Shown: positions 45,707-64,000, counted from the first letter of the stretch. The stretch is DNA of 64,000 nt from Candidatus Latescibacterota bacterium (GCA_965203805.1 OZ241917.1:4416001-4480000), one strand, 5' to 3'. The notes: generated from the letters alone by a model not told the origin. Numbers and translations: made by a program.

Positions 45707-48700
45707 GTGAAGAACGGACCGGTGGGCCTGAAGGTGGAAGCGCTGAAAGCCATGTGTCTCGATACGGCGCTGGTGGTCGACGGCGAGCCGCAGGCGACCA
45801 TTGTCATCGGCGGGGATGGTGCGCACGCGCGGCATGCAGACAGAATCGTCGAGCGGGTGAAGTCGGCGACGGGCGCGCGCCTGGACGTGGTCACGGCGGT
45901 AGACGCGAATGCCGGAATGCTGCGGAAGGGGCACGTGGTGGCGCTGGGAAATATGGCTGACAACGCCTTTATCCGGTGGCTGTATTACCAGTGGTGGGCG
46001 GTGGAAGACCGTTGTTATCCGGGAAGGGGCGGGTACGCGTTGCGGACGCTGCACAATCCACTGGGCAACGGCAACAACGTGGTGCTGTTGGGGGCCAGCG
46101 ACGAAACCGGACTGGAGCGTGTGGTGTCGCGTTTTGCGACACTTGTGTCCGATGAGAAGACCGGCGGCCTGGGGAGGTTGATGGAAATCCGGCTCGGTCC
46201 CGAATTCGACGCATTCGGCCGTCCGCCGGAGGGATGGCTGCAGGAACGGCGGGAGGACTTCCTCGCACGGGCGACCGCAGAGCACGCCTCTGAATCGGGC
46301 GCGGGCTTCCAGTTTATTTCCGAGGCGGGCGCGTACGGGCTGATGTATCACCGCACCGGTTACGAGGCGTATGCAGAGGCCGTTCGGGAAATCGCGGAAG
46401 CGCATTTGAAGATGGGCGAGTTCGGGGTGATGGCACACTTTCACGTCTGGTGGCTGGCCGCGGTGTGGGACCTGATCGAAGAGAGCCCCGTGTTCTCGGA
46501 CGAGGACCGGCTGAGGATCACGCAATACCTGCTGTGGATCATGGATTCCACCGAGGGGGCGTATACCCGGTTCTTCCGTGAGGGCGTGGGGCACCGGATG
46601 GTCCGGCAGAACCACCAGACGCTGGTGGCGCTGGCGGCGTGGTTCGGCGGGCGGTATTTCTCGACGCACTACGGCTTCGAGGAGGCGAAGGAGTGGATGG
46701 CCGCGTCCGCGGACGTGTTCAAGGGGCAGGCGGTGTCGTTCAAACCGATCGAGGATGCCAACGCGTACCAGTGGATGACGCTGGACCACATCCTGACCTA
46801 CACGCTGGCGAGCGGAGATACCACGTATATCGACAACGGGAACTGCGGGCGGTCTCTGGACCAGGCGGTGCTTTACTGCAACAACCGGGGCGCCCTTCCG
46901 GCGTTTGGAGATACGGGGGCTCCGATGGAAGGATACCCGACGAATTTCCTGGTCAAGGCGGGGCATGTATTGCAGGACGGCCGCGCGGCGTTCCTGCTGG
47001 GCAAACGGTTCGACAGACCGTCGGACTATTTTCGGCCACAGCCGCCGGGTGAGCGTTACGAGTCCGTAAGCGATCCATTGCTGGTAAGGAGCTTTGAAAA
47101 GTATTTCTGCGACGGGCTGGCGCCGGAGGTCCCGGTGGAGATGGCCGGCGTACAGGTGCTGGAGGTCGCGGGCGGGTTCTACGATTTCGCGGAAGACCCG
47201 AAGGCGAGGCCGCGCGAAGTGAAGCCGCTGAATCTGCGAAGGGACGAGGCGTTCGACACCATCTGTTTCCGTGAGGGGTTTTGCCGGGACGACCAGTACC
47301 TGATGCTGCACGGGATCTTCTACGGCAACCACAGCCACGAAGACGGGAATACCATCGCGGAATTCTCGGCGAACGACCGGCTTTACCTGGTGGATGCATC
47401 GTATACGGAAGGGCCGACGCTCAAACACCACAATGGCGTGACGGCGGTGCGGAACGGAGAGGCATGGAACGTGCCCGCGCTGTGCCGCATGGAGGGCGCG
47501 GCGGACCTGGGCCGTGCGGGCATGAGCCGGACGTCCGTGGAAGGAGACTGGGGCGCAACGTGGGTCCGGAACGTCGTGTGGCGAAGGGGGCGCTTTTTCG
47601 TGGTGGTGGACGAAGTCGAAGCAACGAAGGCGGGCGCGTTCGCGCTCCAGTGCCACTGGCGCACATTGGGGACGCCCGCCTTGAAGGACGGTACGCTGGA
47701 GGCGGTGCAGCAAGACCCCGAGACCGGCCGCGAAGACCGGTTTGTCCTGCAGAGCGCGGGCGGAGGCCGGATGTCGCTGGAGCGGGACTGGGAGAATTTC
47801 GGCCACTGGTGGGATTCATATCCCTATGCGGACAATTACGTGAACATCCTGCGCGAGTCGGCCAACCGGGAGATGGCGGTGGGAGACCGGCACACGTTTC
47901 TCAATCTGTTCTATGCCTCCAACCCGGAGAAACCCGTGGACGACCGGATGCGCCGCGTGGGCGAATCGGTCGTTGTGGTCGAAGGATCGGACGGCTGGAT
48001 GCTGGCAGGCACCGGGGGCGGAGACGGTGCGTTCGAGGTCGGGCCTCTTGCGGGCCGCGCCGAAATCTTCGCGGCCGGCGACGGGTGGTTTGCGCTGTGC
48101 AACGGGACATCGCTTTATTCGGAAGATGCGATGTTTGAAAGCGAACGCCCCGTTTCGATCGAGTTCGATCTGGATGCGGGAGAGGGCGTGGTTGTGGCGT
48201 CCGAACCTGCCGAGATCTCCCTGTGTGGCGAGCGGATCCGCGTTGCGGCCGGGAGGCAGGAGGTGAAGACACGGAAGCGCGGAGCAGGTGTAATTTCGAT
48301 GGGCGGGATCACGGACCTCCCGGCGTACCTGGCGGACGTTCAGGCGCCCGCGTGGGCAGCGTCTGTTCCGGGGTTGCGGAGCGTCTGGACGTACGACGCC
48401 GGTTCGGGCGTACGCTGCGCCGCCGGGGGCCCGGACGGGGTGGTCCTGGGAACGGAGGACGGACGGGTCCTGGCGCTGGACGAAAACGGGAAGCCGGCCT
48501 GGTCCTTCCAGGCGAACGGGCCCGTGCTTTCCGTGTATCCGGCGGACCTGGACGACGGGCGTTGTGTGATCGCGGGCGCCGACGACCGGCGCCTCTATCT
48601 GCTGGAGGAAGGCGGACGCGTGCGGTGGTCGCGCGAATTCGAGATCTACAGGGGAACATGGGACCGGTACGCCCGGAATTCCGCGGTGGAGTTCGTAACG

Positions 48701-49444
48701 GCGGCGGACCTGCGCGGCGACGGGCAGACGGATATCCTTGCGGCGGTCTCGGACCGGCAACTCCACTGTTTTGACGCCGACGGCGTCGAACGCTGGAGTT
48801 TTATGATCTACGGGATATTCGCGCCGCTTCGCGTGGCGGATATCGATGGAGACGGTCGGCGGGAGGTGATCGGCGGACCGGGCCGGATCACGTGCGGAGG
48901 GACCTGCTATGTGCTGGACGCGGACGGCCGCAACCTCGGCAGCAACGGGCTGGACGGGTGGGCGTCCATGATGCCCGCGTGCGACGTTTGGGTGCGGGAG
49001 GAGGACCATCTTATCGTTTGCGGGACGAACCGGTCGCACGTCTTCGGGTTGAAGCTGGAGGGCAATCGACTGGCGACGCTGTGGAAGCAGCGGGTAGGTG
49101 AGGAAGTCAACGCGGTCTGCGCGGTTGACGTGGATGGGGACGACAGGCCGGAAGTCGTGGTCGGGTCGGACTGCTTCTATCTCTATCTGCTGGATGAGGA
49201 AGGTACGGAGCGCTGGAGGCGAAACCTGGGAGCGCCGGTGCAACAGGTGATGGTTGCTGACCTGAACGGAAGCGCAAATATCGTCGCGGCGTGCGAGGAT
49301 GGAACCATGTGGGTCCTGGACGGGTACGGCGCGACAGTTGCGAGCCATTCGGCGAATGGCGCGATTCACGTGCTGGCGGCGGACGGCGGGGGGCATCTGA
49401 TGCTCGGGGGGTCGGATGGGACGCTTACGGTGCTGGGGACGTGA
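45707..49444 (+). CDS. Large heparinase II/III-like protein with C-terminal PQQ/FG-GAP beta-propeller
   Basis: RQNHQ, EDANAYQW, LPAFGD, GNHSHEDGN, KHHNGV; C-terminal ADLRGDG, ADIDGDG, DVDGDD and G..RW blades. Confidence 0.7.
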   Translation: MKNGPVGLKVEALKAMCLDTALVVDGEPQATIVIGGDGAHARHADRIVERVKSATGARLDVVTAVDANAGMLRKGHVVALGNMADNAFIRWLYYQWWAVEDRCYPGRGGYALRTLHNPLGNGNNVVLLGASDETGLERVVSRFATLVSDEKTGGLGRLMEIRLGPEFDAFGRPPEGWLQERREDFLARATAEHASESGAGFQFISEAGAYGLMYHRTGYEAYAEAVREIAEAHLKMGEFGVMAHFHVWWLAAVWDLIEESPVFSDEDRLRITQYLLWIMDSTEGAYTRFFREGVGHRMVRQNHQTLVALAAWFGGRYFSTHYGFEEAKEWMAASADVFKGQAVSFKPIEDANAYQWMTLDHILTYTLASGDTTYIDNGNCGRSLDQAVLYCNNRGALPAFGDTGAPMEGYPTNFLVKAGHVLQDGRAAFLLGKRFDRPSDYFRPQPPGERYESVSDPLLVRSFEKYFCDGLAPEVPVEMAGVQVLEVAGGFYDFAEDPKARPREVKPLNLRRDEAFDTICFREGFCRDDQYLMLHGIFYGNHSHEDGNTIAEFSANDRLYLVDASYTEGPTLKHHNGVTAVRNGEAWNVPALCRMEGAADLGRAGMSRTSVEGDWGATWVRNVVWRRGRFFVVVDEVEATKAGAFALQCHWRTLGTPALKDGTLEAVQQDPETGREDRFVLQSAGGGRMSLERDWENFGHWWDSYPYADNYVNILRESANREMAVGDRHTFLNLFYASNPEKPVDDRMRRVGESVVVVEGSDGWMLAGTGGGDGAFEVGPLAGRAEIFAAGDGWFALCNGTSLYSEDAMFESERPVSIEFDLDAGEGVVVASEPAEISLCGERIRVAAGRQEVKTRKRGAGVISMGGITDLPAYLADVQAPAWAASVPGLRSVWTYDAGSGVRCAAGGPDGVVLGTEDGRVLALDENGKPAWSFQANGPVLSVYPADLDDGRCVIAGADDRRLYLLEEGGRVRWSREFEIYRGTWDRYARNSAVEFVTAADLRGDGQTDILAAVSDRQLHCFDADGVERWSFMIYGIFAPLRVADIDGDGRREVIGGPGRITCGGTCYVLDADGRNLGSNGLDGWASMMPACDVWVREEDHLIVCGTNRSHVFGLKLEGNRLATLWKQRVGEEVNAVCAVDVDGDDRPEVVVGSDCFYLYLLDEEGTERWRRNLGAPVQQVMVADLNGSANIVAACEDGTMWVLDGYGATVASHSANGAIHVLAADGGGHLMLGGSDGTLTVLGT

Positions 49445-52384: not shown

Positions 52385-53419
52385 TTGATCGAGCTCGTAA
52401 TTTACGTCTGTGCCGTGATCTTCGTCTCCGCGATGTGCTCTCTTTTCGAGGCCGTTCTCTATGCCGTACCCGTCAGTTACGTCGAGAGTCTCGCGCAGAA
52501 GGGCGCCGTTTCCGGCCGGATCCTGAAAGACCTGCGCATGCGCAACGTGGATCGTCCCATTTCGGCCATCCTTTCGCTGAATACGATCGCGAATACCGGC
52601 GGCGCTTTTCTGGCAGGCGCGGCGTTCATCATGGTATTCGGCGTGGAATGGGAGCTTTATTTCACCATCTTTATCACACTGTCGGTTCTGTTGCTTTCCG
52701 AAGTCATTCCCAAGACGGTCGGCGTGGTTTACAACCGTTCTCTGGCCGGCTTTGTTGCGATCCCGCTTCAATTCCTGGTCTGGGTCCTTTATCCTCTGGT
52801 GGTGATGTGCAGACTGGTCACCCGTGCGTTTTCGAAGGGCCGTTCGAGCCAGGAAGTGTCGGAAGAAGAGATCGCAGTCATGGCGCGCATGGGCCGGCAG
52901 ACCGGCGCGATACAACCCGATGAAGCCCGCGTGATGCAGAATATCCTCACCCTCAAACGCAGGACGGTGCAAGACGTGATGACCCCGCGTACGGTCGTAT
53001 TCGCGTTGAGCGCGGACCTGACCGTGGAGCAGGCGCAGAAGGAAGCGGGCGTCTGGCCGTACAGCCGGGTTCCGGTCTTCGAGAATGACTTTGAGGACGT
53101 GATCGGCGTCGTGATGCGTCGTGATGCGTTCAGTGCCCTGACCGAAGGGCGGGGGCAGACGACCGTTTCGGAACTGATGCGTCCGGTCCACTTCGTTGCA
53201 GAGACCGTCTCACTGGACCGCGTCCTGGAGATGTTTCTGGAACGGCGGCAGCACCTGTTCGCGGTCATCGACGAATACGGCGGGCTGGCAGGAATCCTGA
53301 CGCTGGAAGACGTGCTGGAAGAAATCCTGGGCAGGGAGATCGTGGACGAGTCCGATACGGTCACGGATATGCGGGAACTGGCGCGCCGCCGCCGCCGGCA
53401 GGTCTCGGAAGAGGAGTAG
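52385..53419 (+). CDS. CNNM (DUF21)-CBS domain membrane protein (CorB/TlyC-like)
   Basis: SAMCSLFEAVL, AILSLNTIANT, LLSEVIPKT, DVMTPRT, YSRVPV, VIDEYGGLAGILTLEDVLEEILGREIVDE; TTG start follows GGAGGT. Confidence 0.92.
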   Translation: MIELVIYVCAVIFVSAMCSLFEAVLYAVPVSYVESLAQKGAVSGRILKDLRMRNVDRPISAILSLNTIANTGGAFLAGAAFIMVFGVEWELYFTIFITLSVLLLSEVIPKTVGVVYNRSLAGFVAIPLQFLVWVLYPLVVMCRLVTRAFSKGRSSQEVSEEEIAVMARMGRQTGAIQPDEARVMQNILTLKRRTVQDVMTPRTVVFALSADLTVEQAQKEAGVWPYSRVPVFENDFEDVIGVVMRRDAFSALTEGRGQTTVSELMRPVHFVAETVSLDRVLEMFLERRQHLFAVIDEYGGLAGILTLEDVLEEILGREIVDESDTVTDMRELARRRRRQVSEEE

Positions 53420-53430
53420 GGGCATTTTCC

Positions 53431-53484
53431 CGGGAGTGAGGGCATCCTGCCCTCGATGGCAGGGCGAGACGCCCTCCACCCCGG
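53431..53484. repeat. REP doublet (inverted pair)
   Basis: gggagtGAGGGCatcctGCCCTC-gatggc-AGGGCGagaCGCCCTccaccccg. Confidence 0.65.
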
Positions 53485-53540
53485 ACAAGCCCATCTGCGT
53501 CCGTGGAATCGGGTGCCTGGGTTTTTCTTGGAGGACAGGA

Positions 53541-54812
53541 ATGGCGGTCACACAGCCAACGCTCTTCGACCGGCCTCAACAGGCAACAGGACTCCTTTCT
53601 TACGACGAGTTCCTGGATCACATTGAGAATTTCGACGATTTTTTCAAACAAACCGAAGTCCTGGAATTCCCGGATGCGGATTTCGAGATTCCGGTCTTCG
53701 TGAATGAGTTCTGGACGTCGAAACAGAGAGCGGCCAATTCGCTTCACGAGGTTTCGTACCGCGCTTGTTTCAAGCCCCAGTTGCCCCGGTTTTTCATCAA
53801 ACGTCTGACCGCTCCGGGCGACGCGGTCTACGATCCCTTCCTGGGCCGCGGAACCACCGTCATTGAGGCGGCGTTGCTGGGGCGAACGCCCGTCGGGACG
53901 GACGTCAATCCGCTGAGCGAAATCCTCGTCTCGCCCCGGCTGGCCCCGCCTCCTCTCGCGGCCGTTTCCGAACGATTGAGGGAACTTCCGCTCGAGGCCC
54001 GAAGTGAGTCCTGGGACGACTTGCTGGCCTTCTATCATCCGAATACGTTGCGCCAGATAACGAACCTGCGGAAATACCTGCTTGCAAGACAGGAAGACGG
54101 AAGCCTGGATGCCGTCGACGGGTGGATCAGAATGGTGGCGACCAACCGGCTGACGGGTCATTCTCCCGGCTTCTTTTCGGTCTACACGCTGCCGCCGAAC
54201 CAGGCCGTCACAGTCGAACGGCAACGGGGAATCAACCTGAGCAGAAAGCAGACGCCTCCCGAACGGGACGTTCGGGTATCGATTCTGAAGAAGTCCAGGT
54301 CGCTCCTCGGCAAACTTGAGGAACACGACGCCAGACGGCTGCGGGAGACTTCGGGAAAGGCATTGCTCACGACCGGCTCGTCGGACGACACGCCGGAAAT
54401 AGCGAGCGATTCCGTCAGTCTGGTCGTGACTTCTCCGCCGTTTCTGGACGTGGTGGATTACCAGACGGACAACTGGCTGCGCTGCTGGTTTAACGGCATC
54501 GACGCGCGGACCGTGGACGTATGGCACTTCAATAAGCCGCGGGAATGGCAAGCGGCCATGACGCGGGTGTTCGCCGAACTCAAAAGGGTCCTCAAGCCGG
54601 GAGGTTATGTCGCATTCGAAGTCGGGGAAGTCCGCGGCGGGACAATCCTCCTGGAATCTCTCGTCGTGCCCGCGGCGGCGGAAGCGGGTCTCGAACCGCT
54701 GATGGTCCTGGTAAACGACCAGGTGTTCACCAAGACCTCCAACTGCTGGGGCGTGGAGAACCTCAAAAAGGGAACGAATACCAACAGGATCGTACTGTTG
54801 AGAAAACCCTGA
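53541..54812 (+). CDS. DNA amino-methyltransferase (probably N4-cytosine), orphan
   Basis: Motif X YRACFKPQLP, motif I YDPFLGRGTT, later motif IV VTSPPF, ELKRVLKPGG; start follows GGAGG. Confidence 0.85.
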   Translation: MAVTQPTLFDRPQQATGLLSYDEFLDHIENFDDFFKQTEVLEFPDADFEIPVFVNEFWTSKQRAANSLHEVSYRACFKPQLPRFFIKRLTAPGDAVYDPFLGRGTTVIEAALLGRTPVGTDVNPLSEILVSPRLAPPPLAAVSERLRELPLEARSESWDDLLAFYHPNTLRQITNLRKYLLARQEDGSLDAVDGWIRMVATNRLTGHSPGFFSVYTLPPNQAVTVERQRGINLSRKQTPPERDVRVSILKKSRSLLGKLEEHDARRLRETSGKALLTTGSSDDTPEIASDSVSLVVTSPPFLDVVDYQTDNWLRCWFNGIDARTVDVWHFNKPREWQAAMTRVFAELKRVLKPGGYVAFEVGEVRGGTILLESLVVPAAAEAGLEPLMVLVNDQVFTKTSNCWGVENLKKGTNTNRIVLLRKP

Positions 54813-54928: not shown

Positions 54929-55091
54929 ACGCCGGCTTACTCAACGTGGCGGAACTCGTGTGACTATGGCATTTCACGCATGACTCGGCGGCGCACAATA
55001 GAAGCCCACAGTTCCGGATGCGTCGAAACAAAGCGCAGCCGTGCCCAAAAAAAACACTGGAAAATTCCCAAAGATTCCTGTGAGTGTTGCC

Positions 55092-56114
55092 ATGTCAAAT
55101 GAAGACGTCGGGATCGGCATCATCGGCGGCGGAAAGGCCGGGCGGAACTTCGCCATGGCCATCCGGTCCTGCGCGGGCGCCAGGGTGCGGATGTTCTGTA
55201 CGCGGCACGAGGAATCGGCCAGGGACGCGGCGGAATCCTGCGGTGTCGCGGGATGGACGACGGAATACCGGACGATGTTGCGGGACCCGGAAATCGGGGC
55301 GATTATCGTGGCCACGCCCGACGAGTTTCACTGCGAGCACGCGGTCCTGGCTGCCCGTGCGAAAAAACACGTTCTGTGCGAAAAGCCGATGTGCCGTTCC
55401 GAGGAAGAGGCGGACCGGATGATCGGGGCGGCGCGGGAACATGGCGTGATCCTGATGGTCGGGTTCACCGAGCGGTACAGCCATCCCTGCGCCGAAGCCA
55501 AAAAACGGATTGACGCGGGCGAGATCGGTACGCCCAGGATGATGTTCGCCAGAAGATGCCATCCACGGTCCGTCCTGAGAAACCGTGCGTGGGTCAACGA
55601 CGATGAAACCGGCGGCGTCCTGAACTATGCCGGACCCCACAATATCGACCTGATCTGCTGGCTGATGGGAGGCGCGCCCGAACGGGTATACGGCGAAATG
55701 GGACAGCTGATTCTGAAAGATCAGAACTTTACCGATTGCGCGGTCATGACATTCAGATTTCCCAACGGGTCCGTCGCGGCGCTCTACGAGACCTTCGCGT
55801 ATCCGGGGACCTATCCCCACGGCGTGGACCGGAACATCGAGATCCTGGGTGACCGGGGGGTCCTGCACGTGGACTTCATGTCCCAGCCGCTGAGGGCGTT
55901 TACGGATGAGGGACACCAGGTGGCCGATTCGATTACGTGGCCGGCGTCCGAACACGGGATTCAGGGCGCGTTGCTGGCCGAAGTCGAGCATTTCATCCTG
56001 TGCGTACGGCAAGGGAGAACACCGCTCACGAAGGGCGAGGACGGCAAACTCGCGATGAGGATCGCGCTTGCCGCAAGGAAGGCGGCCGATACGGGAACGG
56101 CGATTCCCATATAG
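55092..56114 (+). CDS. Gfo/Idh/MocA family oxidoreductase
   Basis: IGIIGGGKAG, IVATPDEFH, VLCEKPM, VGFTERY, GGVLNYAGPHNID. Confidence 0.9.
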   Translation: MSNEDVGIGIIGGGKAGRNFAMAIRSCAGARVRMFCTRHEESARDAAESCGVAGWTTEYRTMLRDPEIGAIIVATPDEFHCEHAVLAARAKKHVLCEKPMCRSEEEADRMIGAAREHGVILMVGFTERYSHPCAEAKKRIDAGEIGTPRMMFARRCHPRSVLRNRAWVNDDETGGVLNYAGPHNIDLICWLMGGAPERVYGEMGQLILKDQNFTDCAVMTFRFPNGSVAALYETFAYPGTYPHGVDRNIEILGDRGVLHVDFMSQPLRAFTDEGHQVADSITWPASEHGIQGALLAEVEHFILCVRQGRTPLTKGEDGKLAMRIALAARKAADTGTAIPI

Positions 56115-56169
56115 AACGTGCGCTGGTACTTCAGTGGACGGTGCAGTCATTCAGTCTGAGAGGGAATTT

Positions 56170-59100
56170 ATGCTGACCATCGACAGAGACGCACCGGTCC
56201 CGCGGCCGGGGAGGTCCATCTGGTACACGGTGGACGGGATTCGCCGGGCACGGAAGAATATCCGCACGCAAGAGTGGGCCGCGAAAGAGTGGGAGCGGAT
56301 CAGTGAAGTGGCGGAGCGGTGGGTCCGTGTTTCCGACGAGGAGATCCACGCGCTGGTACCGGATCGGGGGTCGATCTTCTGCAGCGGGCGGAACGGGAGT
56401 CCCTGCTGCAAGGCCCCCTGGCGGTGCGAGGTGTCGCGGCCCCGCCGTGCATTCTGCGGAGCTTGCGGTCGTGAATATCCGGATAATCGAAAAGGGTCTC
56501 CTTTCCGCGACGAGGGACGCGGCTTCTACTACGAAGGAAAATGGTTCGCGCCGGTGCCCGTCTGGAACAGTTTTGTCGTGAGTATGCTGAGCACCTATTC
56601 GTACGGCTCCGGCGGCCCCACCGACAATGCGTTGTTGAATCTGGCCCTGGCCTACGCGATAACCGGCGAGACCCGGTTCGGAGAAAAGGCGCTGCTGATC
56701 TACGACGCGCTGGCCACGCTGGCGCCCACGACCATCGGGCCGCTGGACATTCCGGAGGGTAAACAGGAGCGGGAGATGGGGCGCATGCATGCCGAGACGT
56801 GCCACGTCAACCGGCAGCGGTTCGTTGACATGCAGGCGTACGATCTCATCTCGGGTCTTCGCGCGATGGACGGGATTTCACCGACACGGGGGAATGGGCG
56901 CATCAGCATCAGGCAGAATATCGCAGAAGGCATGCTGGAAGACTACATCATGACGGAGGGAGGCGGGTACAATCTGCATGAAGGAAACCTCACCCATTTC
57001 CAGAATCACGAACTGGACGGGTTCCGGGCGCTGCTGTCCATCGGCCTGGCGACCGGCAGACCCGACTTCATTACCTGGGCGGGAGGGGCTTTCCGGTCCT
57101 TTCTGGACAACGTGCTCGGCAGGGACGGAGGATACTACGAGAACTCCGAGATGTACGCGTATTTCTCCGGTACGCTGATGCAGGACGTGGCGGAACTGAT
57201 GTACCACTACGATCCCGGCAAGTACGCTTCACCTGAAGATTTCCCGGCGGCGGAGGCGCTGATGGGGCTGAGGAACGCCTTCGATCATCCCCGTCTCGTC
57301 CGGCTGTGCCTGGAGTACACGGAACTGATCCGGGCGTGCGGCCGCATCCCCTCCTATGGAAATACGAACGCGCTACCGGGTTACCGGCCGCCTTCGGAAC
57401 GCCAGGTGATGCCCTCGCACTGGTCGCTGCTGGAACGGCTCTACTTCCGGAGCGAAAGCGCGGAGACACGGCGGCAGGCGAAGGAAATGATGCTGGATCT
57501 GTCTGACGGCGCCGCCGAAAACGTCCGCAACGGGACGTGGGCGCTGTTCAATACCGAACCCGGTCCTGCCGGCGGAGAACGTGCCGCGCCCGCGCGCGGC
57601 TCTTCCTTTGTCGGTCATAAGGGCGTGGTGGTCCTGCGCAGCGGGGTCGGCGACCGATCGCGCGCGCTGATCGTCCGGGGAGGCGCGAATCTGCTGTCGC
57701 AGGACGATCAACTGGCGGTTTTTCTGTACGACAAGGGCCGCACGATTATCGAAGACGTGGGTTACGCCCTGGCCGGTTCACACGTGCACAAAGGGTGGGG
57801 CATGCGGGCGATCTCCCACGCGATGGTGACCGTGGACGAGGATATTCCCACGTCTCAGGGCTACGAATTCGTGCCCAGCGCGGACCTGGTTGCCTTCGAG
57901 GACATGGGCGGCGTGAAGATCGCGGAGTACTCCGCGCCGCTGTCACGGATCCACCAGGGCGCAACCGAGTACCGACGGGCGCTGGTCTTCTGCGACGTGG
58001 ACGAAGAGACCTCGTATACGCTGGACCTGTTCCTGGTGGCCGGAGGGCGCATCCACGACTACGCGGTGAACGGGCCGAAGTTCTTCGATGGGGATTCCGG
58101 CGCCTATTCGCTGGAAGGCGTGTCGCCCGAGGCCCGCGCGGGGGTGTGGACACTGGCGGGGCTGGGTACCCTGGACGGTTCCGAAGAGGCGAACGCGCCG
58201 GGAAAGAGCTGGGGAGAGCGAATCGGCCCGAACGATCGGATTCAGGGCGTGGCCGCTCCGGACGGCAGCCCGCTGCCCTACGGGTGGCTCCCGCCCCCGG
58301 GAAACGGGTACGCGTTCATCCACGACGTGAAGTCCGCCGCGCTGGAACGGGATGCGTACGCGCACTGGCGATTCGGCGACGAGCGGGACACCCATTTCGG
58401 TGTCCTCTTTCCCGCCGATCCCGACGCGACCCTCATCGCCTCAAAGGGTCCCGATCTGAAAGGCGAACAGCAGATCGACAGACTGATCGTCCGCCGGGAA
58501 GGGGAGGATGTGAAAAGCCTGTTTGTCAGCGCATTCGAGGCGTTTTCAGGTTCGCGCAACGTGACCGGCGTCCGGGTGCTCGCGCGGGATCTCCAAAGCG
58601 GGAGCGCCGCGGTGCGGGTGGAACTGGCGGACGGCAGGCGGGATACGATATTATTCTCGAGAAACGGCCGGATGGAACTGGAGGATCCCGAAGGGGCGCC
58701 AATCGCGCTGGCGGGGCGATTCGGAGTCGTTCGGGAAGGGAACGGCGAGGTGGCGCTGTTCCTGGTGGAAGGGACGCGCCTGCGGTTTGGCGACGCGGAA
58801 ACCACACTCCCGCACGCGCGTTTCGAAGCCCGGATCGCGGATATGGATGCCGATGCGGAAACCGTGACGATCGACCGGGGTCTACCGGGCTGGATGCGTT
58901 TGGAGGACCGTCTGTGCCGGGTCGAATCGGGCGAACCGGATGCGCCCTATTCTCACCGTTCGGGATATCGTGTCGCCGCCGCGGAGGGCGGAGAAACCGA
59001 CCGGCTGTTTCTGCAGCACGGCGACCCGCGGCTGGTCAGGGGCAAGGCTGTCTCTGTCGAAGCCCCGGATATCCTGAACTGCGACGTGCCGATCGCGTTT

Positions 59101-59334
59101 GCCTGGGGCTTCAATAACAGCGGTGATAAAGGTGAATATAGAGGAAAGGTGCTGCGAACGGAGGACGGATCGTTCTCGTCCAGGATCGTCGAACTGCTGG
59201 CGTTCAAGAAGATCCGGCTGGAATCCGTGAGGGGGCTGCGCCCGGGCAGCCGTTTCGAGATTCTCGATTTCAAGCCGGCGGATCGGATTTCGATTCCGAA
59301 TTCCGGGAGCTCGGTCCTGTCACGGAGACGTTGA
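56170..59334 (+). CDS. Large heparinase II/III-like protein with Cys-rich N-terminal insert
   Basis: ARKNIRTQEWA, CCKAPWRC..CGACGREYPDN, FQNHE, DGGYYENSEMY, IPSYGN, VVLRSG, DVGY, ISHAMVTVD, YRRAL, YTLDLF..GGRIHDY. Confidence 0.7.
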   Translation: MLTIDRDAPVPRPGRSIWYTVDGIRRARKNIRTQEWAAKEWERISEVAERWVRVSDEEIHALVPDRGSIFCSGRNGSPCCKAPWRCEVSRPRRAFCGACGREYPDNRKGSPFRDEGRGFYYEGKWFAPVPVWNSFVVSMLSTYSYGSGGPTDNALLNLALAYAITGETRFGEKALLIYDALATLAPTTIGPLDIPEGKQEREMGRMHAETCHVNRQRFVDMQAYDLISGLRAMDGISPTRGNGRISIRQNIAEGMLEDYIMTEGGGYNLHEGNLTHFQNHELDGFRALLSIGLATGRPDFITWAGGAFRSFLDNVLGRDGGYYENSEMYAYFSGTLMQDVAELMYHYDPGKYASPEDFPAAEALMGLRNAFDHPRLVRLCLEYTELIRACGRIPSYGNTNALPGYRPPSERQVMPSHWSLLERLYFRSESAETRRQAKEMMLDLSDGAAENVRNGTWALFNTEPGPAGGERAAPARGSSFVGHKGVVVLRSGVGDRSRALIVRGGANLLSQDDQLAVFLYDKGRTIIEDVGYALAGSHVHKGWGMRAISHAMVTVDEDIPTSQGYEFVPSADLVAFEDMGGVKIAEYSAPLSRIHQGATEYRRALVFCDVDEETSYTLDLFLVAGGRIHDYAVNGPKFFDGDSGAYSLEGVSPEARAGVWTLAGLGTLDGSEEANAPGKSWGERIGPNDRIQGVAAPDGSPLPYGWLPPPGNGYAFIHDVKSAALERDAYAHWRFGDERDTHFGVLFPADPDATLIASKGPDLKGEQQIDRLIVRREGEDVKSLFVSAFEAFSGSRNVTGVRVLARDLQSGSAAVRVELADGRRDTILFSRNGRMELEDPEGAPIALAGRFGVVREGNGEVALFLVEGTRLRFGDAETTLPHARFEARIADMDADAETVTIDRGLPGWMRLEDRLCRVESGEPDAPYSHRSGYRVAAAEGGETDRLFLQHGDPRLVRGKAVSVEAPDILNCDVPIAFAWGFNNSGDKGEYRGKVLRTEDGSFSSRIVELLAFKKIRLESVRGLRPGSRFEILDFKPADRISIPNSGSSVLSRRR

Positions 59335-59544: not shown

Positions 59545-61509
59545 ATGCAGACAACACAGCCGGATACACATCCTGAAGCGACTGCCGGTCCGGAACGATG
59601 GGGCGTCACCGTGCGAGCGGTCGCCATCGGGCTTGGCGTTGCCCTCTTCATTCAGGGCTGGGGCATCTTTTCCAGCCGGGTGATCCGGTCGTCCGGCGTG
59701 ACGGCCGGTTTTCTTTCGCCGGCCCTGTTCATTGCGATCCTGCTCGTCCTGTTCGTTCTGAATCCCTTCCTGAAGCGGGTCGTTCGGTCCGCGGGACTGA
59801 GCCTCGCGGAGATGCTGACGATTTTCGCGATGGGGCTGATGGGCGGCGCTCCCATCGCGCTCCTGTACGCCTTTATCACGATTCCCTACTACCTGGCCAC
59901 CCCTGAAAACCAGTGGGGCAACCTCCTGCACCCGAACCTGCCTTCATGGGTCGCGCCCCTCGACGTGGACGGCGCCGTCACGCTTCTGTTCAACGGATTG
60001 CCGGACGGGCAGGGTACGATACCATGGGGGGCATGGGTCGTGCCCATGTTCTGGTGGGTGCTTCTGTTCTGCGTGCTGGCATTCGCCGCGGCTTCGATTT
60101 CCGTGGTACTCCGGAAACAGTGGGTGGAACACGAGCGGCTGCGGTACCCGGTCCTGGAACCGATCGTGGAGATGGCCAGGGGCTCGGAATCCGGCGGGTG
60201 GTGGCCGCAGTTCGCCCGCGGAAAGCTGTTCTGGTTCGGGGCGGGATTCGCGTTCGTATTTATCTTCTGGAATGCGCTGCCCTGGATCTCGCCGGCCTTT
60301 CCCGAGATGCCGGTACGCGGGCGGGTGTATGCCTTCTTCGGGCGGGACATGCCGCCCATGTTCAGCTATATCGATCCTTTCTCCTTCGCGTTCTCCTACT
60401 TTGCGAACTTGGACGTTCTGTTCAGCGTCTGGTTCTTCTTCGCCGTGTTCGTGCTGGAATTCGGGATTTTCAACCGGCTGGGCTACAGCATCGGCGGCAG
60501 AGGCGACCGGTACGGGTCCTACGACGCGGCATCGAGCTGGCAGGGCCTGGGCGCGTTCTGCGTCTTTGTGTTGTTCGGCCTGTGGATGGCCAGGCGCCAC
60601 CTGAAGGACGTGGTGATGAAGGCGTGGCGGTCGGACCATTCCGTGGACGATTCGCGGGAGATGCTGTCGTACCGGACTGCGGTCCTGGGCGTTGTGGTTG
60701 GGTTTGTTTTTGCGGTCGTGTGGCTGAACCGGGCGGGGATGGACCTGCAGATGGCGATTCCGCTCGTGGCGATGCTCTTCGTTCTCTACATAGGCGTCGC
60801 GCGGATCATCGCCGAATCGGGCCTGTTGTACGTGCAGGGGCCGATGACGGCGCAGAGCTTTTCGGTGTATCTGCTGGGCGCGAAAGCGGTGTCGCCGTCG
60901 AGCCTGACCACGCTCCTTTTCTCCTATCCGATCCACGCGAATTCGACCTCGCAGATGTCGCACGTGGCCAAGGTCGGCGAACAGATCCGGGACAGAGGAC
61001 GACGGCTGTTCTGGGCGGTGGGTCTTTCGTTTCTTGCGACAACCCTGATCGTGATCGTCGGGACGCTCTATCTGGGCTATACCCGCGGGGCGGAGAATTT
61101 CGGACACGGCTTCATCTGCGGGGGCGTGCACAATTTTCCGGATACCGTGAGCAAGATCAAGGAGCCGTTCGACGTCGACTGGAACCGGATCATGTTTTTC
61201 GGGATCGGCGCAGTGGTGATGGTCGTCCTCACGTTTCTCCGCTACCGGTTTCCATGGTGGCCGATCCATCCGGTGGGGTTCGCCATTATGGGGACGGACC
61301 TGGTGCGAAATTTCGCGCTGACGCTGTTTCTGGCGTGGGCGTGCAAGACGGTGATTCTCCGCGTGGGCGGCAACACGCTGTTCCGGCAGGCGCAGCCGTT
61401 CTTCCTCGGCCTGCTGGTGGGGCACGTCCTGGGGATCACGGGGGCGTTCCTCGTGGATATGTTCATGTTCCCCGGAGCGGGGCATAGCATTCACCCGTGG
61501 ATTGAGTAA
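59545..61509 (+). CDS. DUF6785/DUF6784-like multipass membrane protein (OPT-like putative transporter)
   Basis: Many TM helices; GVTVRAVAIG, LSLAEMLTIF, PYYLATPENQW, IPWGAWVVP, LRKQWVEHERLRYP, RIIAESGL, RFPWWPIHPVGF, PFFLGLLVG. Confidence 0.8.
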   Translation: MQTTQPDTHPEATAGPERWGVTVRAVAIGLGVALFIQGWGIFSSRVIRSSGVTAGFLSPALFIAILLVLFVLNPFLKRVVRSAGLSLAEMLTIFAMGLMGGAPIALLYAFITIPYYLATPENQWGNLLHPNLPSWVAPLDVDGAVTLLFNGLPDGQGTIPWGAWVVPMFWWVLLFCVLAFAAASISVVLRKQWVEHERLRYPVLEPIVEMARGSESGGWWPQFARGKLFWFGAGFAFVFIFWNALPWISPAFPEMPVRGRVYAFFGRDMPPMFSYIDPFSFAFSYFANLDVLFSVWFFFAVFVLEFGIFNRLGYSIGGRGDRYGSYDAASSWQGLGAFCVFVLFGLWMARRHLKDVVMKAWRSDHSVDDSREMLSYRTAVLGVVVGFVFAVVWLNRAGMDLQMAIPLVAMLFVLYIGVARIIAESGLLYVQGPMTAQSFSVYLLGAKAVSPSSLTTLLFSYPIHANSTSQMSHVAKVGEQIRDRGRRLFWAVGLSFLATTLIVIVGTLYLGYTRGAENFGHGFICGGVHNFPDTVSKIKEPFDVDWNRIMFFGIGAVVMVVLTFLRYRFPWWPIHPVGFAIMGTDLVRNFALTLFLAWACKTVILRVGGNTLFRQAQPFFLGLLVGHVLGITGAFLVDMFMFPGAGHSIHPWIE

Positions 61510-61527
61510 TGCGCTGTACGGGGATGA

Positions 61528-64000
61528 ATGATGTTTGACGCGATCAGAAGGGTTCTTCTCGTTCTGTTGACGCTGGGCGTCCTCGCACTCGTGGTCGTAT
61601 TCGACCCCGAGGAAGTATCCGACGTGATGCGGGATACGCTGAATATTCATCAGGTGGCGCCAGGGGAGCAGGTGCGCGGCGATCTGTCGGCCGAGGACCG
61701 TGCGGTTCGACAGGTCGTGGATGCGATCACCGAAGACGACGTCAGGACTCACGTGGCGTCATTGACCCGGATGCCGTCGCGCGTGGTCGGGTACGGCGGG
61801 GAAAGGCAGGCGCGGGACTATATTGTATCGCAATTCAAGGCGCTGGGTCTGGAGCGAATCACGACGGAGACCTTCGACGTGACCGTGCCGATCGACCGCG
61901 GCGGCGTGCTGAAGGAGACGGCCACGGGCACGGAGATCCCCATATTCGGTCTCTGGCCGAACGACGTCCGGACGCCGACGCTTCCGGCCGAAGGAATCGA
62001 GGGGTCTCTGATCTACGGGCGGCGCGGAGAGTTTTCGGATTTCAACGGGTCGGTCGTGGACGGCAGCGTCGTGTTGATGGATTTCGGTTGCGGGCAGAAC
62101 TACGTGAACGCAATGACCCTTGGCGCGAAGGCGGTTCTGTTCTTCGACGACGGGAACGTCACGCGCGGGGAGGCGGAGGACAAGTTTCTGGAGGTGCCGG
62201 TAAACGTGCCCCGGTTCTGGATAGACCGGGAGGATGCGCATCGCCTTCTCAATGAAGTTGAGCGCAGGGACGTCAGCGTGCATCTCACGGCCCGAATGGA
62301 CTGGAAAACGGTGGAGGCGGCCAATGTGTACGGCTATCTGCCGGGATCCGAGGAGCGTATTCCGGGGGGAACCGGCATCAGGTGGAAGGACAGGCTGATT
62401 GTGGTCGGGGCGTACTACGACGCCATGTCCATCGTGCCTGCCCTGGCCCCGGGCGCCGAAAGCGCCTCCGGCGCCGCCGCGCTGCTCGAGGTGGTCCGTT
62501 CGCTGAAGCGGCACGGTTCGCGGTACTCCTTCCTCTTTCTGGCGACGTCGGCGCACTTCGAGGGACTCACGGGAATCAACGAATTCCTCTTCAGACATTC
62601 CCGACGAAGCGATTATTTCAGGGACCGGATCCCCGAAGGCGACCGGATCGACTTCAGCCTGTTCGTCGGGCTGGACCTGTCCAGCCGCAGCAGGCAGGTG
62701 GGCGGATTCGCGATGGGGACCTTCTACAACGCCCGCAAGGGAACGGACGAATACCTGAAAAACCTGCTGACGCCGTATTCTCACCGGTTCCGCGAATACA
62801 GCAGGGCGCTCTTCCCGGACGAAGAGCGGTACGTGGACGTGGTGGCGCCGGCCAAGCGGCCATGGACGTCATATATGCCGGTACCCCTGGCCCTGGAAAG
62901 CGAGGCCGCCGTCTTCGTCGGGCAGGAAGCGATGACGCTGGTCACCCTGTACGACGGTCGCGCCCGCACAGACACGCCCCTCGATCTTCCCGAGGCTATG
63001 GCCTTCGACCGCCTGACCGATCAGGTGCGGTCCGTGGCGGCCATGATGATCAGGGCGGGGAACGACCCCGGCTTTTTCCGGGAGACCCAGCTTCGGCTGA
63101 TCGATCGTGGGCACCGTCTCTCCGGGCGAATCCTCTGGTTCGACCGGGACGTGGACTTCGCGATTCCCAGGGTGCCGGTTCCGGGCGCGCTGGTGACCTA
63201 CAAGCAGCCGGGACCGGGCAGCCTGGCCGGCGTCCGGACGCTGATGGTCACGCAGGCCACCAGGGGTCCGATATATGAAGGACCGCCCACCCGCGGGACG
63301 CTGTTCGGATCGAGGGAAGCGGTTGGGCGGACCGGCCGGTTTGGGTTCGACATCGTGAGAAACCGTTTTTCGAATCAGATTCTGGCTTACGAGATCGACG
63401 CGGAGGGGCGGATTGTATCGGCGCCTGACATGGGACGCGAGGGCGCCGGCTCGGATGGCAGAGACGGGAAGTACCCCCTGCTTCAGGGATACGGTTGGTG
63501 GGACAACCAGATGATGGGCGTGCTGTTCAGGTGCCGGTCGCTGAGCCTGTTCGAGATTGTGGATTCCAGCTATCTCTCGGTGCTGGATCACATGAAGGTG
63601 CTCGGGAGGGACAACAGCGAGCCGATCGAGTACGGATTCCGATACGTGGCCAACCAGGGCCGGAAGGAGGGAAAGGTCACGCAGGCGTCGGTGGCGTTCG
63701 CGCCGCCCGGGGAGCGGATCAAGATCCTGATGAGCAGCGGGCTGTTCGGAATCAAGTACCTGCTGATCAACGCGCCGGAAGACCTGTTGACCGATCCGGT
63801 CTCACCGCGACAGGTGAACGCGGCGACCGTGAAGCGGTCCATGGGAGCCGGCTACGTCCCGGACGGAGATGCGATTTCCCTGCCGTCATACAGGGCGGCG
63901 CGGGACATGTGGATCGTGGACGACGTTCGGATGAAGCAGCTGGCACGCTACGGCGTGGAAAACCAGCGGCTCTCCCGGCTGCACGAACGGGCCCGGGAGT
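61528..64000 (+). CDS. Large membrane-anchored M28-peptidase-like protein with PA-like domain and degenerate Zn ligands (3' partial)
   Basis: My translation is open from 61528 to the window end: N-terminal TM, SRVVGYGGERQARDYI, LWPNDVRT, NVYGYLPG, IVVGAYYDAMS, APGAESASG, FLATSAHFEGL, GLDLSS, TDTPLD; absent from the ORF track because no stop codon lies in the window. Confidence 0.85.
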   Translation, partial: MMFDAIRRVLLVLLTLGVLALVVVFDPEEVSDVMRDTLNIHQVAPGEQVRGDLSAEDRAVRQVVDAITEDDVRTHVASLTRMPSRVVGYGGERQARDYIVSQFKALGLERITTETFDVTVPIDRGGVLKETATGTEIPIFGLWPNDVRTPTLPAEGIEGSLIYGRRGEFSDFNGSVVDGSVVLMDFGCGQNYVNAMTLGAKAVLFFDDGNVTRGEAEDKFLEVPVNVPRFWIDREDAHRLLNEVERRDVSVHLTARMDWKTVEAANVYGYLPGSEERIPGGTGIRWKDRLIVVGAYYDAMSIVPALAPGAESASGAAALLEVVRSLKRHGSRYSFLFLATSAHFEGLTGINEFLFRHSRRSDYFRDRIPEGDRIDFSLFVGLDLSSRSRQVGGFAMGTFYNARKGTDEYLKNLLTPYSHRFREYSRALFPDEERYVDVVAPAKRPWTSYMPVPLALESEAAVFVGQEAMTLVTLYDGRARTDTPLDLPEAMAFDRLTDQVRSVAAMMIRAGNDPGFFRETQLRLIDRGHRLSGRILWFDRDVDFAIPRVPVPGALVTYKQPGPGSLAGVRTLMVTQATRGPIYEGPPTRGTLFGSREAVGRTGRFGFDIVRNRFSNQILAYEIDAEGRIVSAPDMGREGAGSDGRDGKYPLLQGYGWWDNQMMGVLFRCRSLSLFEIVDSSYLSVLDHMKVLGRDNSEPIEYGFRYVANQGRKEGKVTQASVAFAPPGERIKILMSSGLFGIKYLLINAPEDLLTDPVSPRQVNAATVKRSMGAGYVPDGDAISLPSYRAARDMWIVDDVRMKQLARYGVENQRLSRLHERARE

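Follow-up and report, generated by a model that had tools for sequence, protein, structure and literature searches.

The type VII ATP-binding cassette (ABC) mechanotransmitters, such as MacB, LolCDE/LolF, FtsEX and YtrF, combine an FtsX domain with four transmembrane segments (TMs) and a domain outside the cell between TM1 and TM2. The topology of MacB is established, and in MacB-type proteins the loop after the second FtsX helix is the coupling helix; the FtsX-type permeases of the ADOP family are usually encoded without an adjacent ATPase. The OPT/Yellow-Stripe-like (YSL) family, to which the barley transporter HvYS1 belongs, has other members with peptide substrates. HvYS1 itself is described as a homodimeric, proton-coupled, elevator-type symporter of this family that carries an iron-phytosiderophore complex by proton symport (PMC9691689). 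Here, we analysed a stretch of 64,000 nucleotides from Candidatus Latescibacterota bacterium (GCA_965203805.1, OZ241917.1), hereafter the window, in which the gene of a DUF6785 protein (P0001) is followed by that of a fusion protein (P0003) joining an M28 peptidase-like head to an FtsX-type module. The pairing is real and conserved, and it brings together known folds in an undescribed combination. It probably represents a new kind of uptake or envelope machine, and we give an even chance to the reading that P0001 and P0003 are parts of a conserved Latescibacterota membrane module in which an FtsX-driven head feeds import by an OPT-fold permease.

The source genome is a single contig of 5,865,457 bases, of which the window covers bases 4,416,001-4,480,000. 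The genes of interest lie at the end of the window and just beyond it:

59545..61509, + strand: P0001, DUF6785/DUF6784 protein of 654 aa (open reading frame (ORF) and Pfam)
61510..61527, + strand: intergenic gap of 18 nt with a G-rich, ribosome-site-like stretch (sequence reading)
61528..64000, + strand: P0003, first 824 codons of the M28-like/FtsX fusion gene, open at the window end
Downstream of P0003, + strand: P0004, a second DUF6785/DUF6784 protein of 655 aa (Pfam, as for P0001)

The gap sequence carries GGGG 5-8 nt ahead of the P0003 ATG, and a terminator scan found no terminator-like site between P0001 and P0003 (18 nt, L003 3511-3528). An earlier note on this DNA had reported a frame of more than 820 codons beginning 18 bp after the membrane gene, and we recovered it exactly (61528-63999, 824 codons, gap of 18 nt). 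Full-length P0003 has 1571 aa (L003:3529-8244), with the stop codon 2243 bases past the window end. The frame is therefore intact in the genome and is not a decayed stub ending soon after the window, an outcome that the note had allowed for.

Hydropathy analysis gave eight TMs in P0003 (residues 9-27, 866-884, 894-922, 927-945, 994-1012, 1293-1311, 1335-1353 and 1377-1395). The parts encoded within the window are as follows:

61552..61608, + strand: N-terminal membrane anchor, residues 9-27 (hydropathy 2.64 over 19 residues)
61687..63090, + strand: PA/M28-fold head, residues 54-521 (VIA-align span of the model, Pfam, and profile against the PDB)
62029-62247, + strand: PA insert, about residues 168-240
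62413..62973, + strand: remodelled metal-site positions Y296, D298, E311, H343, F344, D383 and D482 (alignments and column counts)
63112..63765, + strand: beta-rich middle ectodomain region, residues 529-746 (AlphaFold2 strands, high pLDDT)

Searching P0003 against Pfam returned Peptidase_M28 (PF04389) at 22.0 bits, above its cut-off of 21.3, and PA at 22.8 bits, just below its cut-off of 23.9. FtsX (PF02687) matched residues 1293-1402 with an E value of 3.8e-14, which bears out, for this gene, the earlier statement that similar proteins continue into FtsX-like helices. A family profile built from 48 fusion-protein members was searched against PDB sequences and matched the PA-domain aminopeptidase 2ek8 (E 3.1e-16), BSAP/YwaD (E 4.5e-12), nicalin (E 1.1e-6) and transferrin receptor 1 (TfR1; E 3e-4); its C-terminal half matched YtrF (E 3.2e-11), MacB (E 6.9e-9, covering positions 1188-1365), LolF and LolC. 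The AlphaFold2 model of residues 28-865 (pLDDT 89.4, pTM 0.88) retrieved 2ek8 in Foldseek (E 7.6e-24) and also BSAP, PaAP, TfR1 and GCPII, and it aligned with the Aeromonas aminopeptidase 1rtq at Z 29.8 with a root-mean-square deviation (rmsd) of 2.6 Å over 269 residues. The N-terminal TM, PA-like domain and M28 fold proposed earlier were thus all found again. In the model, the beta-rich region is followed by three long helices that form a helical stalk; matches to the M28 head dominated the fold searches, and residues 529-746 were barely probed.

The FtsX module of P0003 has four helices with an outside loop of about 280 residues between the first and the second. By analogy with the MacB topology, residues 28-865 and 1013-1292 would lie outside the cell, and residues 1396-1571 would be cytoplasmic. 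Conservation is evident in the loop that follows the second FtsX helix, where R1314 is invariant and E1313 and E1317 are present in at least 90%. The C-terminal 167 residues matched no Pfam family and nothing in the ESM Atlas. Searches with this C-terminal domain found 1417 representatives at E ≤ 0.001, 946 at ≤ 1e-10 and 93 at ≤ 1e-30; among the best 150 representatives, it is mostly the C-terminal end of proteins of ~1450-1900 aa; the others are shorter proteins, which are probably incomplete, and a small number of longer variants. One distant relative, P0300, has LysM and an NMB0315-like domain I before its M28, MacB_PCD and FtsX parts. Giant variants (P0247, P0248 and P0254; 2769-3053 aa) have N-terminal extensions of 1100-1240 residues, and Pfam Big_5 bacterial Ig-like domains were present in P0247 and P0254, the two giants scanned.

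P0003 therefore shares with the type VII ABC mechanotransmitters the FtsX domain, the four TMs and the outside domain between TM1 and TM2. In contrast to these proteins, it has four extra TMs and an 840-residue M28-like ectodomain before the module, it adds a conserved C-terminal domain of 160 residues, and its locus has no ATPase gene; to our knowledge, no described type VII ABC member has a steady partnership with OPT-fold permeases. The ADOP orphan FtsX permeases (TIGR03434) matched P0003 weakly and in the FtsX domain only (E 3.1e-6; 25.6 bits against a cut-off of 622), and P0003 differs from them in having one FtsX unit instead of two and a different ectodomain. It also departs from the binding-protein-dependent ABC importers, the model implied by the earlier note, since its ectodomain has the M28/PA fold, the permease is FtsX-type and the locus lacks an ATPase.

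P0001 belongs by Pfam to DUF6785 (PF20581; E 5.4e-99, 332.4 bits, cut-off 25) and DUF6784 (PF20580; E 4.1e-24, 85.1 bits, cut-off 26.4), and P0004 likewise scored above the gathering scores of PF20581 and PF20580; no NCBIfam model matched P0001. The protein has 13 hydrophobic segments by hydropathy, and its AlphaFold2 model, built from 46 relatives, reached a pLDDT of 87.3 and a pTM of 0.89. When this model was searched against the PDB with Foldseek, only two matches had E ≤ 0.001, and both were HvYS1 (7wst_A, E 1.5e-7; 7wsr_A, E 1.4e-6, TM-score 0.61/0.66), the next match having an E value of 3.6e-3 and a TM-score of 0.11. An independent structural alignment again placed 7wsr_A on top (Z 22.0, rmsd 4.2 Å, 549/600 residues), followed by a match at Z 5.7. 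The model thus matches the full-length fold of HvYS1, at 10-12% identity.

A second family that is relevant here is X660, a multi-pass family of 655-806 aa without any Pfam match. Profile alignment with hhalign related X660 to DUF6785 at 96.3% (E 1.5e-9 over 218 columns; 95.3% in a second run) and to genuine Latescibacterota OPT proteins at 88.9% (E 2.4e-6 over 510 columns). By these profile comparisons, X660 is a very divergent relative of DUF6785. The OPT family model PF03169 gave no match at E ≤ 10 to P0001 and three X660 proteins, and a six-frame genome search with the OPT model gave borderline scores for five X660 genes (35-49 bits) and one DUF6785 gene (28.7 bits). Neither the DUF6785 nor the X660 profile had a usable match among PDB sequences, and the ESM Atlas offered for P0001 sub-threshold leads only, to peptide transporter and OPT clusters (0.78-0.79). 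As modelled, DUF6785 is an OPT/YSL transporter fold, yet one that falls outside PF03169 by the Pfam model; P0001 further differs from the described OPT/YSL proteins in being filed by Pfam as DUF6785/DUF6784 and in that its gene stands beside that of an FtsX-type protein. No genuine OPT gene was found in the window's genome. About 19 of the phylum's 168 genomes have strong matches to the OPT model (E ≤ 1e-58), among them all 12 of the small-genome families f5, f6 and f12 and none of the 21 genomes of the window's own family. In L089 and about 15 genomes of family f4, ORFs of ~1070-1190 aa match the last ~95 positions of the Pfam OPT model, and the scanned 599-aa part from L089 has PDZ domains too.

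Alignments of P0003 with 2ek8 and the Aeromonas aminopeptidase made with HMMER revealed a remodelled metal site, in which GSHHD is replaced by GAYYD, APGAnDDASG by APGA-ESASG and AEE by AHF. The first zinc-ligand His has become Tyr296, the bridging Asp Glu311, the catalytic Glu His343 and the adjacent ligand Glu Phe344; D298 and D383 keep their canonical identity, and D482 probably replaces the last ligand His, as judged from motif position and family invariance. The substitutions AYYD, GAES and AHF named in the earlier note were confirmed by these alignments, and TDT is supported by motif position and family invariance. The columns were counted over 124 sequences (P0003, 120 database homologues and 3 paralogues of the same genome):

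Position 296: Y in 74, H in 40 and F in 8 of 124
Position 298: D in 124/124
Position 311: E in 121, D in 3
Position 343: H in 124/124
Position 344: F in 119, H in 5
Position 383: D in 124/124
Positions 482-484: DTP in 123/124

Because the replacement residues are nearly or fully invariant, the site has been remodelled under strong selection and has not drifted. The peptidase is thus "dead" in the sense that the canonical catalytic Glu and most zinc ligands are gone, but not in the sense of decay. The canonical M28 set (His, Asp, Glu, Asp and His ligands plus the catalytic Glu) is absent from P0003, with D383 retained. From its residues, the head is plausibly a pseudo-peptidase, and the altered site could possibly serve metal or ligand binding or an altered catalysis. 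It shares its fold and PA insert with the PA-domain M28 aminopeptidases (2ek8, 6hc6 BSAP/YwaD, 8ac7 PaAP and 1rtq; Foldseek E 7.6e-24 to 3.4e-21, Z 26.9-29.8), from which it differs in being membrane-tethered, in continuing into a beta-rich domain and a helical stalk, and in its swapped ligands. TfR1 (Foldseek E 3e-20 to the ectodomain model) and nicalin resemble it as M28/PA folds without the canonical site that are membrane-anchored beside multi-pass partners, and nicastrin is also an inactive M28-fold receptor. In contrast to TfR1 and nicalin, the replaced positions of P0003 are invariant and are potential metal ligands, and its anchor is an FtsX-type module.

The window's genome contains 23 DUF6785 genes, 4 fusion genes and 2 X660 genes. 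The fusion genes are found in four arrangements:

Locus A (window): DUF6785, fusion, DUF6785
Locus B: fusion, X660
Locus C: DUF6785, fusion
Locus D: ATPase, small ORF, DUF6785, fusion, X660

All four fusion genes have a DUF6785 or X660 neighbour, and both X660 genes lie directly downstream of a fusion gene, so that X660 behaves as a dedicated partner in this genome (2/2). Linkage was then counted in a first sample of 40 regions from 33 other genomes, picked by fusion-protein matches alone, which together with the window's genome gave 45 full fusion genes from 34 genomes in 12 GTDB families. A DUF6785 or X660 gene was present within 300 bp of the fusion gene in 32/45 cases, within 1.5 kb in 40/45 and within 5 kb in 44/45, nearly always on the same strand. 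A second sample, which shares genomes with the first, had DUF6785/X660 at 70 of 80 named loci with 4-kb flanks, and at 59 of the 63 that had 2.5 kb or more of flank on each side. The labels deposited by submitters for some of the named loci are Gemmatimonadota, Planctomycetota and Nitrospirota, from which a spread beyond the phylum is at most tentative. Small genomes with one to three DUF6785 matches (L042, L043, L044 and L061) retain one near the fusion gene.

The two families are also joined in single chains: in 2 of 148 representatives with the C-terminal domain, the reading frame runs on into DUF6785. P0392 (2120 aa) extends from an M28-like part through MacB_PCD and FtsX to DUF6785 and DUF6784, and in the fragment P0356 DUF6785 comes after FtsX; none of the 120 listed homologues of the fusion protein has a DUF6785/X660 part fused to it. 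Across the phylum, a full-length fusion protein was found in 155/168 genomes and DUF6785 in 154/168, and in family f10 both were absent (0/13 genomes). The co-occurrence of the two families on which the earlier note depended is therefore observed in adjacency, in fusion and in joint absence. Taken together, these results support a functional link between the DUF6785 and fusion families. A prediction of the complex of P0001 with P0003 residues 860-1015 scored 0.00, which counts neither way.

An ATPase is encoded in cis at the D locus:

L021:13571-14359, - strand: D-locus ATPase
L021:3761-13045: further part of the D locus (gene order ATPase, 96-aa ORF, DUF6785, fusion, X660)

This ATPase of 262 aa precedes the DUF6785 gene in the same orientation. 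In NCBIfam, it matched LolD, DarD, FtsE, MacB and DevA best, all below the equivalog cut-offs, and by these matches its class is one that works with FtsX-type permeases. In 18 of the 22 family genomes, an orthologue with 79-98% identity precedes the D-type fusion gene by 2.7-5.3 kb, likewise in the same orientation; the exceptions are G040, G041, G043 and G044. From the conservation of the coupling loop and the presence of the D-locus ATPase, we infer that the FtsX module of P0003 still works with an ATPase, supplied in trans. A 603-aa protein with four BMC (microcompartment shell) domains is encoded just downstream of the D-locus X660 gene (L021:1929-3740, - strand). An ATPase beside a DUF6785 gene at genome position 607,639 was considered as a partner and rejected; it is of the taurine/nitrate importer class and lies near a BPD_transp permease. 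In two small genomes (L044:14234-17365 and L043:2534-5365), the genes that come after X660, on its strand, encode a 294-aa protein without a family, a PqqD-like protein of 125 aa, a small FtsX-type protein of 228 aa and a LolD/MacB-class ATPase. A small FtsX and ATPase pair is also present elsewhere in the window's genome (~2,417,096-2,418,629).

In the import module that we prefer, one or two OPT/Yellow-Stripe-fold permeases (here P0001 and P0004, at most other loci DUF6785 and X660) would act together with a PA/M28 head whose site is remodelled and which is tethered to a MacB/FtsX four-helix module and a cytoplasmic C-terminal domain. The FtsX module would act as in MacB, LolCDE and FtsEX. 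On its cytoplasmic face it would receive a LolD/MacB-class ATPase, whose gene is in cis at the D locus alone and which would be supplied in trans here, and ATP hydrolysis would move the periplasmic head. The head would then capture, and possibly trim, a periplasmic substrate and hand it to the OPT-fold permease(s) for import. In a more specific form, which we put forward tentatively and with less confidence, an ATP-driven MacB-type mechanotransducer with a repurposed M28 head would assemble in fixed stoichiometry with elevator-type OPT-fold permeases, which it would feed or gate, so that ATP and proton energisation would be combined; paralogues of this hybrid class would operate at different catabolic loci, with a small number of fusion proteins acting in trans for many solo DUF6785 permeases. 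The earlier note had assigned the binding of substrate to the peptidase fold and translocation to the DUF6785 protein. The linkage of the families and the transporter fold of DUF6785 agree with that division of labour, but the FtsX module does not suit a passive binder and most DUF6785 genes stand alone. The oligosaccharide substrate suggested at the same time was a guess from the neighbourhood and gained no direct support; HvYS1 carries an iron-phytosiderophore complex.

Several observations weigh against the import module. Within the window's genome, only 4 of the 23 DUF6785 genes adjoin a fusion gene, and the other 19 stand apart from any. In a quick maximum-likelihood tree of 46 DUF6785 proteins, whose solo rows all came from the window's genome, the fusion-adjacent copies were interleaved with solo copies, and the fusion-adjacent label changed 7 times, at least 5 of these changes being forced by well-supported branches; there is thus no dedicated partner subfamily among the DUF6785 proteins. 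The genomes of the phylum are kin, so the linkage counts overstate independence. On the permease side, PF03169 had no match at E ≤ 0.01 in three further X660 proteins, and the DUF6785 profile aligned with 12 genuine Latescibacterota OPT proteins at 8.8% (E 0.0038), which is not significant. Extension of the locus, which the earlier note proposed in search of ATPase or partner genes, yielded the second DUF6785 gene but no ABC ATPase within 20 kb around P0003; an ATPase was near the fusion gene in 0/45 cases within 1.5 kb and 3/45 within 5 kb, and at 1/80 of the named loci. Contigs from three RNA libraries cover P0001 and P0003 piecewise and none spans the gene junction, which hints weakly at expression, with DNA carry-over as a possible source. 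Contact between the proteins, metal binding, substrate and the direction of transport are proposals drawn from sequences and models.

Since the DUF6785 genes of this genome mostly occur solo, a partner encoded in cis is not required. The neighbours of these solo genes include PhyH dioxygenases, heparinase II/III-like proteins, GFO/IDH/MocA proteins and xylose-isomerase-like barrels, as well as aminotransferases, amidohydrolases, an enolase-superfamily enzyme and UxuA, and DUF6785 looks like a general importer family across catabolic clusters. The family is hugely expanded, with 23 copies here and, at first look, ~20 to 88 candidates per relative genome. It is possibly the phylum's principal family of importers.

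The genes around the A locus are as follows:

55041..56114, + strand: GFO/IDH/MocA oxidoreductase of 357 aa (Pfam GFO_IDH_MocA, E 1.2e-27)
56068..59334, + strand: 1088-aa protein directly upstream of P0001
Downstream of P0004, + strand: two proteins of 1228 and 1262 aa with FG-GAP/lambda-carrageenase-like propeller matches

The 1088-aa protein had no Pfam family at E ≤ 0.001 and clustered by BLASTP with a Hepar_II_III_C and Kelch protein of the same genome; two DUF4962/Hepar_II_III_C proteins and another propeller protein (Pfam) are encoded further upstream. The order of GFO oxidoreductase, 1088-aa protein, DUF6785, fusion and propellers is kept in two further genomes, one of them of another genus (G055 and G060); at L052 and L022, the block from the GFO oxidoreductase to the fusion gene has 75-87% identity. 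Orthologues of the A-type copy with >80% identity were confined to its own genus and genus g5 (G060, 81% and 74%), and the next closest relatives, in family f3, have 60-64% identity. This orthologue spread and the conserved gene order identify the A-type copy as a lineage-specific paralogue in a glycan-degradation-like block. Sequencing runs of several studies, with the labels sponge, coral and marine metagenome, contained near-identical DNA. The A-type copy probably serves the uptake of some product released when a complex glycoconjugate of sponges or corals is degraded. Three propeller paralogues of 1228-1262 aa (window 45707-49444 and L003:10341-17757) have the FG-GAP/lambda-carrageenase-like propeller at their C-terminus, preceded by ~800 residues without a match to any family, and could be glycan-active enzymes of a new kind. 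The glycan-degradation-like gene run is broken by genes for a CNNM/CBS membrane protein and an N6_N4 DNA methylase of 458 aa (window 52385-54812).

The import module has to be weighed against other accounts of the same genes. As a core gene set of the phylum that is retained in genomes of 1-2.6 Mb, it could serve envelope maintenance, a LolCDE/FtsEX-like housekeeping task in which the head would recognise or trim cell-wall peptides and the permeases would recycle them. FtsEX systems, which control wall hydrolases, provide a precedent, PPIC-type rotamases and TPR proteins recur as neighbours, and P0300 carries LysM and the NMB0315-like domain. However, the LysM hint comes from that single representative, the A-type copy lies in a glycan-degradation-like block and not with wall genes, and 23 DUF6785 copies in catabolic clusters fit nutrient uptake better; we consider envelope maintenance unlikely. 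A different question is whether the head is an active metallo-hydrolase that processes import substrates by means of new ligands, such as E311, H343, D383 and D482 around a single metal. The replacement residues are classic metal ligands that are (nearly) invariant in the 124 sequences, D298 and D383 are canonical, and the fold is shared (Z 24-26) with glutaminyl cyclases, which work with a single zinc. This possibility is nevertheless doubtful, as the catalytic Glu is a His and the neighbouring ligand Glu a Phe, position 296 varies (Y, H or F), the site was read from sequence alignments, and the inactive TfR1 and nicalin match as well.

The usual lack of an ATPase in cis, the conserved C-terminal cytoplasmic domain without a known family and the ratio of 4 fusion genes to 25 permease genes would suit a sensor or regulator, in which the fusion protein would sense substrate or flux in the manner of BceAB-type FtsX transporters and gate or regulate the adjacent permeases without transporting anything itself. 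Such a role is improbable in our judgement: no kinase or regulator gene is conserved alongside, and the single-chain fusions point to a stoichiometric complex. We see an equally slight chance that the two proteins do not touch at all and that their genes are neighbours through shared regulation or history. The predominance of solo DUF6785 copies and a tree without a partner clade are what such independence would predict; against it stand the linkage across 12 families, the position of both X660 genes of the genome next to fusion genes, the existence of in-frame fusions and the joint absence of both families from f10. The nearest comparison among known systems is a type VII ABC mechanotransmitter combined with an OPT-type importer, and the module stands outside full membership of each family because there is no ATPase in cis here, no PF03169 match and no canonical M28 site.

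A literature search for DUF6785 and DUF6784 returned no paper, and none of the titles and abstract openings retrieved for FtsX/M28/Latescibacter appears to concern the fusion protein. The main text of a paper on sponge Latescibacterota does not contain FtsX, M28, oligopeptide or OPT, and its Supplementary Data Set S5, which lists transporters, may include such genes under generic names (PMC12993501). Each part of the module is of a known fold class, and the combination of an OPT-fold permease, an FtsX mechanotransmitter and a remodelled peptidase head was not present in the literature searched. Nearly the whole of a phylum of uncultured bacteria, which are frequent in sponges, corals and sediments, has the module in its core gene set. 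The cis-encoded ATPase of the D locus defines a concrete set of three or four genes, which is the best candidate set for expression. If the parts do cooperate, they would constitute a new coupling of ATP-driven periplasmic movement to a secondary-transporter fold, and they would give a function to a large DUF family with 23 copies in this genome and dozens in its relatives.

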